This document shows positions 388 through 50,586 of a stretch of DNA of 64,000 nt, in pieces. Source of the DNA: Methanocaldococcus indicus (GTDB lineage: Archaea; AGJL01; Methanococci; Methanococcales; Methanocaldococcaceae); NCBI RefSeq assembly GCF_049554935.1, contig NZ_CP186926.1, positions 64,001 to 128,000 on the forward strand. The letters are read 5' to 3'. The stretch's first letter is position 1, and each line of letters begins with the position of its first letter. Under the pieces are notes generated by a model. The model was not told the DNA's origin, did not search any database, and worked only from the letters and a program-made list of their open reading frames with translations. The position numbers and the translations under genes are program-made.

Positions 388-1421
388 CTAAATCCCTCCA
401 ATTCCCTGTCTATTTCATCTCTTTTATTTTTTCTTGTATAGAATGTTGCTTTTACGTTGTCCCAATTAACAGTGTCTCTACTATCTTGCTTAATGTATCC
501 TTTGTCTAACAAGCTTTTAATCCCAATTTTTACATCATCCCTAATAATTATTTTATGTGATAAACCTCTAATTTTGTTAGTAATATCCCCTAAACTGACT
601 CTATGAGGACTTTCTCTTAAAATTTTTAGAATTTTTAGTTCTAAGTCACTTAATCTTTTATTTGAGTAAATCATCTCACCATTTTTGAATACTATTAACT
701 CTCCATCTTTGAATGATTTCCAGTCTTCGTCTGTTAGAGGATTTGTAGCTATAATAAATCCCCTTTCATTAGGATTCTTTACAGTTCCTAAATTTACCTC
801 ATAATCTAAATCTCTTAATCTAATTTTGTCATAAGGAAACACTCTTTTTAGGAAATGTAGTTCTCTCCTACCTTCTATATCTTTATAAGCAAATAAATAC
901 TCTCCATCAGACATTAAAAAGTTGAATGGACCAAATTCATTAATTTTATAAATGATATCTAAAAGTTTTTTAAAACCTTCATAGTTCCATTCTAAACCAT
1001 TCTTTTCAATTTCTTGTATTAGATAGCAAAATACATACTCTGAATCAGTATCTCCAACTGGATAGTATTTTTTAAGTTTTAACTTTTTATATCCTCTTAA
1101 AGTTCCATTATGTGCAAAAACTATTTCCTTATCTCCTAAAAGTCTTACAAATGGATGAGTATTTACATAGCTACAAGTTCCTAATGATGCTCTTCTTATA
1201 TGTAGAATAAATATATTTGATTTTATGTTGTTCCAATCAATTCTATGGGCTAACAATGCACTTCCCATTTTTACTGGTTCTTTTATTAATCTAACAAATC
1301 CATTATGATAGAAAGCTATTCCCCAACCATTTGGATGAAAATCACTTCTATATTTAAAAATATTAAAAGATAGAGAGATATTTACTTTCATATTGAAACT
1401 AATTCCTAATAATTCACACAT
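378..1421 (-). CDS. Class II (Ntn) glutamine amidotransferase, YafJ/EgtC/DUG3-like, with a C-terminal winged-helix-like extension
   Basis: N-terminal Met-Cys nucleophile; HPNGWG, HIRRAS, NTHPF, HNGTL and TDSE motifs; about 85 extra C-terminal residues (LSDLELKILKIL...IKSLLDKGYIKQ). Confidence 0.88.
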   Translation of the reverse strand: MCELLGISFNMKVNISLSFNIFKYRSDFHPNGWGIAFYHNGFVRLIKEPVKMGSALLAHRIDWNNIKSNIFILHIRRASLGTCSYVNTHPFVRLLGDKEIVFAHNGTLRGYKKLKLKKYYPVGDTDSEYVFCYLIQEIEKNGLEWNYEGFKKLLDIIYKINEFGPFNFLMSDGEYLFAYKDIEGRRELHFLKRVFPYDKIRLRDLDYEVNLGTVKNPNERGFIIATNPLTDEDWKSFKDGELIVFKNGEMIYSNKRLSDLELKILKILRESPHRVSLGDITNKIRGLSHKIIIRDDVKIGIKSLLDKGYIKQDSRDTVNWDNVKATFYTRKNKRDEIDRELEGFRWM

Positions 1422-16114: not shown

Positions 16115-16318
16115 TCATTGTTTTGCTTTTAATTCTTTTTTCATATCTTGGTATATTTTTGTCCATTTTAGTTTTCTTGGATTTCTTCCCATAAAGTAAC
16201 TTTTTTCACATTTTCTTGAACAGAAGTATAAAACTTTTCCATCTTTTTCAACATAAACTTTTCCTGTTCCAGGCTCTATTTCATAACCACAAAAACTACA
16301 TTTTTTCCATTCTGGCAT
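16115..16318 (-). CDS. rpl24e: 50S ribosomal protein L24e
   Basis: [26 protein letters not shown]. Confidence 0.97.
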
Positions 16319-16334
16319 AAATATCCCTCTAAAT

Positions 16335-16562
16335 TTATCTTCTTCTGTCTAATGGTCTTGCTTCTCTTTCTGTTTCTCTTAACATAATAATGTCTCCAAC
16401 TTTAACAGGACCTTTAACATTTCTTACTAAAACTCTACCAGTATCTTTTCCTCCCAATATTTTACATCTAACTTGGATAATTCCCCCAGTAACTCCTGTT
16501 CTTCCAATAATTTCAATAACTTCAGCAGCAACAGCCTCTTTATATACAAATTCATCCTCCAT
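16335..16562 (-). CDS. rps28e: 30S ribosomal protein S28e
   Basis: GRTGVTG, RNVKGPV, ETEREA. Confidence 0.97.
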
Positions 16563-16627
16563 ATTTTCACCAAAAAATATAATTTAAAATTGTGTTTTAG
16601 GAAAAATATTAATTAGTTAAAATAATT

Positions 16628-16981
16628 TTATTCTTTTAATGCATTAATTTTTTCTATTAATTTGTTTAATTCTTCTTCATTGTCAGGCTCAATAATAGCA
16701 ACTGATGATGATGCTACTTCTATTCCTGCTGCCTTACCTAAATCTTGTTTTGATAAGACATAAGCATATGGAATATTTTTCTCTTCACATAATGGTGGGA
16801 GATGAGCAACTATCTCCTCTGGTTTAACATCTTCAGCAATAACAACTAACTTAGCAATTCCTCTCTCAACTGCTTTTGTAACTTCATTGGCTCCTTTTCT
16901 AATTTTTTTTGCTTTTGCAACCATATCTAAAATTTCTTTTTGTACATCTTCTGGAACATTGAACTTTACATAAATAGCCAT
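16628..16981 (-). CDS. rpl7ae: 50S ribosomal protein L7Ae (K-turn binding protein)
   Basis: [22 protein letters not shown]; likely start MAIYVKF at 16981 after GGAGGG. Confidence 0.97.
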
Positions 16982-16992
16982 TTTTATCCCTC

Positions 16993-17042
16993 CTTCATTT
17001 TTATTGGGCAATCCGGAGGGATTGCCCTTTAATATAATGAAG
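16993..17042 (-). promoter_or_regulatory. Long hairpin spanning the rpl7ae 5' leader
   Basis: Perfect 9-bp stem (17006-17014 with 17019-17027) extended by CTTCATT/AATGAAG; TATA-like TTTAAATA about 25 nt upstream. Confidence 0.6.
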
Positions 17043-49186: not shown

Positions 49187-49994
49187 TTTTGAAAAATTAG
49201 TTAAGAAAAGTATTGATAAATTCAAAATGCTAAATAAGGATGAAAAAATTTTAGTTTCAGTATCTGGGGGAAAAGATAGCCATGCAGCTGCTTATGTATT
49301 GAATAAGTTAGGATACAATATTGAGCTTTTTCACATAAATTTAGGAATAAAAAACTTCTCAGATATTTCCTTAGAAAAGGTTAAAGAACTCTCAAATATT
49401 TTAGAGGTTCCTCTTCATATAGTTAATTTAAAAGATATAACTGGTAAGACAATAGAAGATTTAAAAAGAAAGCACTGCTCTATTTGTGGAATAACTAAAA
49501 GATATCTAATGAACAAATTTGGATATGAGAATAATTTTGATGTTATAGTTACTGGGCATAACTTAGATGATGAAGTCTCTTTCTTATTGAATAATCTACT
49601 AAATTGGAGTGTAAGATATTTAGCTAAACATTTTCCAGTCCTTCCAGCACATGATAAATTCTTAAAAAAAGTTAAGATATTCTATGAGATTGAAGAGGAT
49701 TTAATTTTAAAATATGCAGTTAAGAATAACATTCCTTTTACAACTGCTAAATGTAAATTTGCTAAGGATGCCATAACTTTAAAGCATAGAGCTTATTTAA
49801 ATGAGCTTGAAAAGGAGAGAAAGAATATAAAGAAACAGTTTCTATATGGCTATTTAAAATATAGACATTTATTTGATATTGAGGAAGATTTTCAGTTTAG
49901 AGAGTGTGAAATATGTGGAATGACATCAGCAGGAAAAATCTGTTCTTTTTGTAGAGTTTGGAAATTATATAAAAAATCAAAATATAAGAATTAA
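49179..49994 (+). CDS. TtuA/Ncs6-like tRNA thiolation protein
   Basis: SGGKDS, CSICG, TGHNLDD, C-terminal CxxC...CxxC. Confidence 0.88.
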
Positions 49995-50045
49995 TAAACA
50001 ATAAATTATATAAACTATATCTTTATATTCTTAGGTTGTGCTATT

Positions 50046-50147
50046 GTCCTGAGCTTAAAAGCTTGGGACTGGTTGATGAGCTAAATGGAGCTAATCTATC
50101 CCTTGCCCCTTTGGGGATGGATTAGCTATGAAGTTTAGTGAAACTGA
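50046..50147 (+). promoter_or_regulatory. Structured RNA upstream of rps6e: hairpin plus double kink-turn
   Basis: 10-bp hairpin 50046-50069, then a long stem-loop 50070-50146 with two 3-nt-bulge/tandem-GA motifs; TATA-like TTATATAA near 50004-50011. Confidence 0.72.
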
Positions 50148-50190
50148 AAAGGGAGACAAAAAATAAAAAAATCTATTTTTGGTGATTTAA

Positions 50191-50586
50191 ATGCCAACAG
50201 CAAAATTTGTAGTAGCAGACCCAAAAACTGGAAGATGTTATCAAATAGAAGCAGATAATACTCCATTAGTAGGAAAAAGAATTGGAGAAGAATTTGATGG
50301 GAAAATATTAGGATTAGAAGGTTATAAGTTAGTTATAACTGGAGGAACTGATGACAGTGGATTTCCAATGAGACCAGATATCCATGGAAGTAGAAAAGTT
50401 AGAGTTTTATTAAGTGCTCCACCAGGATTCCATCCAAGAAGAAAAGGAGAAAGAAGAAGAAAAACAGTAAGAGGAAATACAATTGCTCCAGATATTGTTC
50501 AAATAAACTGTAAAGTTGTAGAATATGGAGAAAAATCAATTCCAGAATTGTTAGGTTTAGAAGAAAAAACTGAAAATAGTGAATAA
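50191..50586 (+). CDS. rps6e: 30S ribosomal protein S6e
   Basis: [23 protein letters not shown]. Confidence 0.97.

Follow-up and report, generated by a model that had tools for sequence, protein, structure and literature searches.

Kink turns (K-turns) bound by L7Ae underlie archaeal rRNA, the box C/D and H/ACA small ribonucleoproteins (sRNPs), RNase P and a few mRNA operators, and engineered K-turn/L7Ae triangles form closed geometries with L7Ae at their corners. Archaeal box C/D small RNAs (sRNAs) carry a C/D K-turn together with a C'/D' K-turn or K-loop and are bound by L7Ae, Nop5 and fibrillarin. In euryarchaeal RNase P RNA, including that of Methanococcales, P12 contains two adjacent K-turns with two L7Ae, in which the non-canonical (NC) helix of KT2 is also the canonical (C) helix of KT3, with 3 bp shared, and a fold-back of the long helix has been proposed (Lai 2017, PMC5499556, available text). 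L7Ae feedback operators have been described for l7ae, nop5 and other genes, including in Methanococcales; according to the accessible parts of the two reports (Daume 2017, PMC5539422; Huang 2019, PMC6298567), these are GAU-bulged K-turns in 5' leaders of translation-related genes, formed by single weak stem-loops at or over the Shine-Dalgarno (SD) sequence, which is occluded on binding. One rod with two K-turns and dyad symmetry is described in the available text of PMC6298567 as a synthetic, bimolecular duplex designed for crystallography. Here we analyse a 64,000-nucleotide stretch of the Methanocaldococcus indicus genome (hereafter the window; assembly GCF_049554935.1, contig NZ_CP186926.1, positions 64,001 to 128,000, forward strand) and describe an RNA element at 50038-50160 (+), upstream of the gene for ribosomal protein S6e (rps6e), in which two standard K-turns are joined through a shared NC helix, an architecture that is conserved and supported by covariation.

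An RNA at the corresponding position has been reported in M. jannaschii. In a study that mapped 134 5' untranslated regions (5'-UTRs) in this species, Zhang, Li & Olsen (2009, PMC2699501, available text) stated that the 5'-UTR of the S6e gene (MJ1260) is stably folded and matches an experimentally detected non-coding RNA (ncRNA), citing E. Li's unpublished 2007 thesis, and that it contains a 2-amino-acid upstream open reading frame (uORF) with a ribosome-binding site (RBS). Like the element, the MJ1260 RNA lies upstream of rps6e on the same strand and is GC-rich, stably folded and, by that report, transcribed; moreover, the tails of two of the loci described below (L077 and L072) carry GGAGG-N6-GUG-AAA-UAA, matching the reported uORF. 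Judged from these sequences, the MJ1260 RNA is almost certainly the ortholog of the element. The available text of PMC2699501 gives no structure, K-turns, family, phylogenetic range or function for it, and in the literature covered, which mostly lay outside subscription journals, MJ1260 was found in no other paper and no description of its K-turns, structure, family or function was found. The RNA, transcribed in at least one relative according to this literature, is not wholly new but is uncatalogued and functionally unexplained. An earlier sequence-only reading of the window (the first-pass annotation) did not recognise the RNA as a described family; this holds with respect to Rfam, but the M. 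jannaschii counterpart was already in the literature, both as an ncRNA that is transcribed and as the 5'-UTR of MJ1260.

The element is an RNA of about 115-125 nt consisting of a 5' hairpin (H1) and then a rod in which three helices alternate with the two K-turns (P1-Kt1-P2-Kt2-P3), all on the plus strand. A 5' lead (GUGCUAUU, 50038-50045), at whose first position the covariance-model match begins (50038; G000:C1:114038), precedes H1 (50046-50069), which has 10 bp and a UAAA loop. P1 (50070-50074, paired with 50142-50146) is the C helix of K-turn 1, whose bulged strand is made of GAU (L1-L3, 50075-77) followed by G(1b) A(2b) at 50078-79, and whose non-bulged strand is G(2n) A(1n) at 50140-50141. 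The central helix P2 (50080-50087, paired with 50132-50139) serves as the NC helix of both K-turns. In K-turn 2, the non-bulged strand G(2n) A(1n) at 50088-50089 faces the bulged strand UAU (50127-29) plus G(1b) A(2b) (50130-31), and the C helix is the P3 hairpin (50090-50126), with 14 bp (50090-103/50113-126) and a C-rich 9-nt loop (50104-50112). Downstream of P1 lies a G-rich 3' tail, AAAGGG (50148-50153). Both turns have the standard polarity 5'-C-bulge-NC with a 3-nt bulge, that is, P1-GAU-GA-P2 for the first and P3(3' strand)-UAU-GA-P2 for the second. The first-pass annotation had proposed this hairpin, rod, bulges, GA pairs, 14-bp stem and 9-nt loop, and all of them were recovered at 50046-50146 (+) exactly where it had placed them; only its "8-pair" central helix, although present, needs rewording, as it consists of 7 standard pairs plus G87.A132.

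Unconstrained minimum free energy (MFE) folding of 50040-50165 (+) recovered the same hairpin and rod at -45.3 kcal/mol, compared with a mean of -26.99 (sd 3.13) for 200 dinucleotide shuffles, none of which was as good (z -5.85; 0/200), whereas the reverse strand folds more weakly (z -2.39). The G+C content of this island is 38-47%, versus 10-30% in the intergenic DNA around it. The genome was also searched with a sequence-independent descriptor of a rod with two K-turns (a 4-bp C stem, an N-A-U bulge, GA, a helix strand of 6-9 nt, GA/AA and a closed hairpin, followed by N-A-U-GA, the complementary strand, GA/AA and the closing stem), and the element was the single match in 1.44 Mb, with no match in the reversed genome. 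Because of the strong z score and the unique descriptor match, the double-K-turn fold is real and no chance fold.

Plain BLASTN of the element against 40 relatives gave one real match only (G003, 78% identity), and the family was recovered through synteny and a covariance model instead. rps6e could be located in 39 of 41 genomes, and inspection of up to 320 nt upstream of it revealed the same architecture in 18 of 30 loci. A covariance model built from 17 sequences then found exactly one strong match per genome in 17/17 genomes of genus g1, which includes the window genome and, to judge from the match with the M. jannaschii literature, is probably Methanocaldococcus, and in 2/2 genomes of genus g3 (E values from 1e-13 to 4e-44). 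All 19 matches are located upstream of rps6e and are co-oriented with it. No such match was obtained from the order's 21 remaining genomes or from 20 genomes belonging to other families, and when the rps6e loci of 11 genomes from the other genera were scanned with filters off, nothing exceeded 10.8 bits. Marginal matches of 19-21 bits were dismissed as false: one in G035 lies inside an 856-aa open reading frame, one in G004 is found at the end of a coding region with a fold z of +0.59, and the alignments in G008 and G034 lack the rod. A loose pattern scan of metagenomes matched at least 120 loci, and among the 80 that were fetched none exceeded 21.1 bits with the model. The RNA family is real, conserved and structurally distinctive, and so far it is confined to two hyperthermophilic genera.

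Covariation was counted on the 19-sequence alignment fitted to the covariance model. Standard pairs occupy 92.3% of the cells, versus 78.6 +/- 0.8 in shuffles; 27 of the 36 pairs change on both sides, and none of 500 shuffles reached any of five measures. When the 3' partners were slid by 1-3 columns as a control, pairing dropped to 37-56%. Independent MAFFT alignments give the same compensations (window versus G003), and RNAalifold run on MAFFT output recovers H1 and parts of P2 and P3. Compensation is seen along the whole molecule: all 14 pairs of P3 (helices 4 and 5) change on both sides, as do five of the six pairs of P2 (helix 3; 96.5% of cells paired) and three of the five pairs of P1 (helix 2; 88.3% paired), in which the outermost pair is weak. 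In H1 (helix 1), 99.0% of the cells of 11 pairs are paired, with five pairs changing on both sides and four never varying. It is the divergent lineages that supply this signal (the window genome with G003, G002, G013, G004 with G014, g3, and the core group), as the 13 sequences of the core are closely related to one another and contribute little.

The K-turn signature itself is almost invariant. Both K-turns have A at L2, U at L3, G at 1b, A at 2b and A at 1n in 19/19 sequences, and 2n is G in 17/19 for each, the exceptions being A or U (A in two sequences for K-turn 2). L1 of K-turn 2 is G in 18/19 and U in the window. P2 measures 7 nt in 16 sequences and 8 nt in three, its two strands being always of equal length. 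Conservation of the GA pairs with covarying flanking helices in the rps6e upstream regions was the check suggested by the first-pass annotation, and it bears out the proposal of two standard K-turns joined through their NC helices. Several conserved pairs are G.U (e.g., columns 13:35, 14:34 and 46:119) and would become C.A on the opposite strand, and the RNA therefore lies on the plus strand; this agrees with the annotated placement of a GC-rich island on that strand between a TATA-like box and rps6e. The lower stem of H1 (GUCCUGA/UUGGGAC) is near invariant, including a tandem U.G/G.U, whereas its upper stem covaries, and the 5' lead contains YUAUU in 18 of the 19 sequences; together, the lower stem and the lead look like a second, sequence-specific recognition site.

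Among known classes, a canonical box C/D or H/ACA modification guide was considered. The element shares with box C/D sRNAs two L7Ae-type K-turns in one small RNA, bulged strands at 5' (C-like) and internal 3' (C'-like) positions, and two NC sides that face each other. Strings resembling UGAUGA and xxGA even occur in the order C, D', C', D, and the K-turn 2 strand reads AUGAUGA in most relatives. However, the segments between these boxes are 7-8 nt long, mutually paired and covarying, versus conserved single-stranded guides of about 10-12 nt with complementarity to rRNA or tRNA, and they are consequently not guides. In a C box (RUGAUGA) the first GA forms sheared pairs. In the element, covarying P1 sets GAU as the bulge and it is the second GA that provides the sheared pairs (1b-2b), a register different from that of a C box. 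The D-like, non-bulged strands are GGA, UGA, GGGA or GUGA rather than CUGA, and a 14-bp hairpin takes the place of the short C'/D' loop. With regard to H/ACA RNAs, which have a large internal loop as pseudouridylation pocket below a K-turn or K-loop and an ACA box 3' of the lower stem, no such pocket is present (the internal loops have only 5+2 nt) and no conserved ACA or ANA was seen after P1. Rfam 15 gave no match at the gathering threshold across the window, and only noise up to an E value of 10 at 49950-50250; for four other loci examined up to an E value of 1, nothing fell on the element, although the same scan detected a canonical box C/D sRNA, sR2, in one of them. The Rfam check that the first-pass annotation had named as decisive for its novelty thus returned no C/D or H/ACA guide. 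Given the unmatched Rfam models, the paired and covarying spacers and the lack of conserved rRNA complementarity, this class was rejected, and a guide function is scarcely credible.

The sR2 gene in question (RF01139, 55.1 bits versus a gathering threshold of 42) lies at 1010-1064 (-) of locus L086 in G013, about 40 nt downstream of rps6e and on the same strand, so that rps6e of this genome is flanked by K-turn RNAs on both sides; sR2 was detected neither in the window nor at the remaining three loci that were scanned.

The comparison with other double K-turns leads to a similar separation. In RNase P P12 one helix plays opposite roles for its two turns, whereas in the element an NC helix of 7-8 bp is common to both and the C helices point outward, giving a pseudo-twofold arrangement. 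The synthetic duplexes have the same one-rod dyad geometry, but the element is natural, unimolecular, closed by a hairpin and possibly held by a pseudoknot. Relative to the L7Ae operators, it is a stable double K-turn at a distance from an SD predicted to be mostly unpaired, and the gene that follows is not l7ae.

The invariant bulges bear on the possible ligand. L7Ae recognises K-turns with a bulged U (PMC3553981, available text), and in each of the six l7ae leaders analysed in the accessible part of PMC6298567, G:A and A:G come after a GAU bulge; by analogy, we infer that L7Ae would be the obvious ligand of both K-turns. The latter source also gives rules for unassisted folding, whereby a Watson-Crick 3b:3n pair prevents ion-induced folding and C:G at -1b:-1n combined with A:G at 3b:3n folds in metal ions alone. 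Under these rules the element is mixed: the 3b:3n pair of Kt1 is Watson-Crick in 12/19 sequences (C:G in 11, A:U in one), disfavouring protein-free folding, while C:G at -1b:-1n of Kt1 in 13/19 and A:G at 3b:3n of Kt2 in 12/19 favour folding. In MFE predictions at 80 C, P1 is lost in the window and P2 in G003. Because of this predicted melting and the Watson-Crick 3b:3n pairs of Kt1, a protein-dependent closure of the rod is plausible. It could be argued instead that the element is a thermostable 5' fold that needs no protein and whose role is to protect the transcript or to position it, with the GA motifs serving as internal-loop architecture, as K-turns do in some riboswitches. The fold is indeed very stable and GC-rich in an AT-rich genome, and Kt2 of the window, with C:G at -1b:-1n and, as the first-pass annotation had noticed, A:G at 3b:3n, has the very combination reported to fold in metal ions alone. 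Nevertheless, the L2=A and L3=U that are invariant in both bulges have been linked to protein recognition (PMC3553981) and to L7Ae-regulated leaders (PMC6298567) in the available text of these studies, which, along with the state of Kt1 and the melting of P1 or P2 in silico, makes a purely structural role very unlikely.

Upstream of the RNA, a TATA-like box (TTATATAA, 50006-50013, +) lies 24 nt before the first model position and is the putative promoter of the RNA itself. A conserved BRE/TATA-like box (BRE, transcription factor B recognition element; AACCAAAAATTATTTAAAA in most g1 genomes) is found at the same distance in all loci inspected, and its spacing predicts a transcript start near 50038-50040. 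Downstream of the G-rich tail, an A-rich spacer (50154-50180, +) ends in CTATTTTT with a T run at 50176-50180 that is terminator-like and may cause termination; a scan for bacterial-type terminators found none. The SD GGTGAT (50181-86, +) comes directly after CTATTTTT and is followed by rps6e (50191-50586, +; Pfam Ribosomal_S6e, E 1.9e-46). Among the 19 loci, a T-tract of at least four residues is present at the spacer position in 18, G002 being the exception. Four genomes (the window genome, G003, G013 and G002) have only 10-28 nt between the model end and the ATG, and because of this short distance the RNA would necessarily be the 5' leader of the S6e mRNA there, unless the A-rich spacer conceals a promoter; in G002 it runs directly into the SD. 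In the other 15 genomes, 82-150 nt (379 nt in G019) lie in between, and this stretch contains a CT[AG]TTTT-type tract and then a second promoter-like box (TTAATTTAAAAA or TTAAATTTAA). The pair of RNA and rps6e is kept amid six different upstream and five different downstream neighbour genes, each of the four compact loci having a unique gene context (in the window, the flanking genes encode a PP-loop ATPase, a DHH phosphoesterase and an AMP/thymidine-phosphorylase-like protein), and with its retention across unrelated flanks the pair therefore moves as a unit.

Two further observations concern these spacers. In loci L068-L080, L082 and L085, this second promoter-like box (AAAGTTAATTTAAAAA) is similar to the RNA's own promoter (AAAAATTATTTAAAA), and one is perhaps a duplicate of the other. 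The 379-nt spacer of L085 (G019) includes extra GC-rich hairpins, e.g., CCACTGCAACCTTCGGTTGCAGGG, which are absent from the other g3 genome and may represent an insertion.

Considering these data, we tentatively favour the view that the rps6e transcription unit has as its 5' module a double-K-turn particle bound by L7Ae, and that this particle acts on the fate of the transcript rather than on access to the RBS, although we would put its chances somewhat below even. In such a scheme, the RNA would start near 50038 from its own strong archaeal promoter, and each K-turn could bind one L7Ae. The two kinks would fold P3 back toward P1, after which the C-rich loop might pair with the G-rich 3' tail. 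The rps6e transcription unit would start with this particle, which in the four compact genomes would necessarily stay on the S6e mRNA as its 5' leader, while in the other 15, where the T-tract and the second promoter-like box follow, it would mainly be a separate small RNA with some read-through. By this route, an L7Ae-dependent 5' ribonucleoprotein could tie the output or the fate of the S6e transcript to the availability of L7Ae.

Several points weigh against this proposal. A distance of 28 nt or more separates the K-turns from the SD, and predictions for all four short leaders leave the RBS mostly unpaired (0.73-0.79 at 80 C and 0.43-0.61 at 37 C), such that the element does not appear to sequester it in these models. 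Because of this distance and unpaired state, and of a second promoter-like box that bypasses the element in most genomes, the known operator mechanism of L7Ae, RBS occlusion, does not seem to fit the element, and the idea of the first-pass annotation that a two-site L7Ae sensor couples S6e synthesis to free L7Ae is weakened. With a second box and a T-tract before rps6e in 15/19 genomes, most S6e mRNA may lack the element, and the linkage in the four compact loci could reflect the dependence of rps6e on the promoter of the RNA. No contact between L7Ae and S6e in the ribosome was found: the 30S site of L7Ae is Kt-33 in the beak (PMC3553981, available text), and the partner reported for eS6 in the sources accessible to us is eL24. 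No S6e mRNA is given among the L7Ae targets in the available text of PMC5539422. In addition, the covariation was counted on a model-fitted alignment, and neither L7Ae binding nor any of the alternatives considered accounts for the 5' lead and the invariant lower stem of H1.

If the leader does control its gene, S6e itself might be the ligand, binding an rRNA mimic in an autogenous feedback loop in which the K-turns are mere architecture. A structured RNA directly upstream of one ribosomal-protein gene in 19/19 genomes would suit this well, as would the widespread occurrence of ribosomal-protein autoregulation (PMC5539422, available text), and the invariant lower stem of H1 could be the protein site. 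However, no sense similarity of the element to 16S or 23S rRNA beyond chance was found, and the H1 motif pair is absent from rRNA at the sequence level. The exposed RBS and the second box in 15/19 genomes speak against an S6e operator as well, and in the accessible literature on S6e no K-turn or comparable S6e site is reported; we therefore regard it as improbable.

A stand-alone alternative is that the RNA acts in trans as a guide-less L7Ae sRNP, e.g., in ribosome biogenesis or as a buffer of L7Ae, with rps6e being merely a co-expressed neighbour or host gene, comparable to eukaryotic snoRNAs (small nucleolar RNAs) within ribosomal-protein genes. The discrete ncRNA detected experimentally in M. 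jannaschii (PMC2699501, citing the thesis) would be expected for such a particle. Li et al. (2008, PMC2602779, available text) reported that TBP/TFB binds strongly to the promoters of 10 genes presumed to encode ncRNAs, and the strong promoter of the element resembles this tRNA/ncRNA class. The T-tract after the RNA in 18/19 loci and the second promoter-like box in 15/19 also point to a separate transcript, the invariant lead and lower stem suggest a second sequence-specific partner, and the flanking of rps6e by canonical sR2 in G013 shows another K-turn RNA beside this gene. On the other hand, adjacency to rps6e is maintained in 19/19 genomes despite rearranged flanks, and in G002 the RNA joins the SD directly, without a T-tract. 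Complementarity to the pre-rRNA is likewise lacking: in an antisense search of the pre-rRNA operon, the lead, H1 and the tail did no better than shuffles (76-100 of 100 shuffles were as good), and a 10-nt match is restricted to the loop of the window sequence. A trans-acting sRNP is accordingly possible, but we consider it doubtful.

The match mentioned last is a 20-nt, 90% antisense similarity (E 0.025) between the P3 apex (50103-50122) and positions 1403-1422 of 23S rRNA (G000:C1:710460-710479). The apex involved is window-specific, the typical form in L068 keeping only 8 nt of the match, and the match is probably a by-product of hairpins rich in CCCC/GGGG.

The first-pass annotation had also pointed to an alternative pairing of UCCCUU (50099-104) with AAGGGA (50149-54). 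Both strings exist, but the pairing is better read as a loop-tail pseudoknot, CCCUUU/AAAGGG (50107-112 with 50148-153), which spares the long stem and is compatible with intact P3. In 19/19 sequences the P3 loop contains a run of C and a run of G follows P1 at a distance of 1-4 nt, and a cognate loop/tail complement of 3-6 bp can be drawn in every one of them: CUCCU/AGGAG in G003, CUCCC/GGGAG in g3, CCAC/GUGG in G013, CCCA/UGGG in G002, and ACCC/GGGU or CCCC/GGGG in the others. Permuting the tails among the 17 distinct loop/tail combinations gave p = 0.049 for helix length and p = 0.0073 for duplex energy, while shuffling the tail of each sequence was mostly not significant. These results are suggestive of the pseudoknot, and their modest strength counts among the points against the L7Ae-particle proposal. 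From geometric considerations, with about one helical turn between the two K-turns, P1 and P3 would be expected to fold toward each other, which would place loop and tail close together. We also considered whether the 3' tail pairs with the 5' lead or with GUCCU; inspection by eye gave a mixed picture, and since such pairing also clashes with the well-supported base of H1, it was dropped.

Taken to its full extent, the proposal would describe a guide-less RNA of box C/D topology in which two L7Ae-bound K-turns and the pseudoknot create a compact, approximately triangular particle that acts as an L7Ae-sensing 5' module of the S6e unit. We consider this complete version unlikely. If true, no earlier case would exist in which one ribosomal protein (L7Ae) controls the gene of another (S6e) through a double K-turn, and its mechanism would be other than RBS occlusion, e.g., through transcript fate or read-through at the downstream T-tract.

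Regardless of the ligand, the RNA would add to the archaeal K-turn repertoire an architecture in which two K-turns with a common NC helix occur in one molecule without guides, a natural counterpart of engineered K-turn/L7Ae nano-objects and switches. The M. jannaschii transcript, known for about two decades and unexplained, gains a structural identity, and a comparative set is ready, with 19 sequences from at least six divergent lineages and a covariance model. Whether L7Ae regulates genes other than its own and those for sRNP proteins can be tested readily at this locus, which also shows how sRNA and ribosomal-protein genes become fused transcription units in archaea.

The window also includes the gene of the candidate ligand, L7Ae (16631-16981, -; start at 16981), in an l7ae-rps28e-rpl24e operon at 16115-17027 (-). 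Used as a comparator, the l7ae 5' leader of the window allowed no convincing K-turn to be drawn. This leader has a 9-bp, GC-rich hairpin (17006-17027), whose CUCC loop is anti-SD-like, and then AAUGA directly before the SD GGAGGG.

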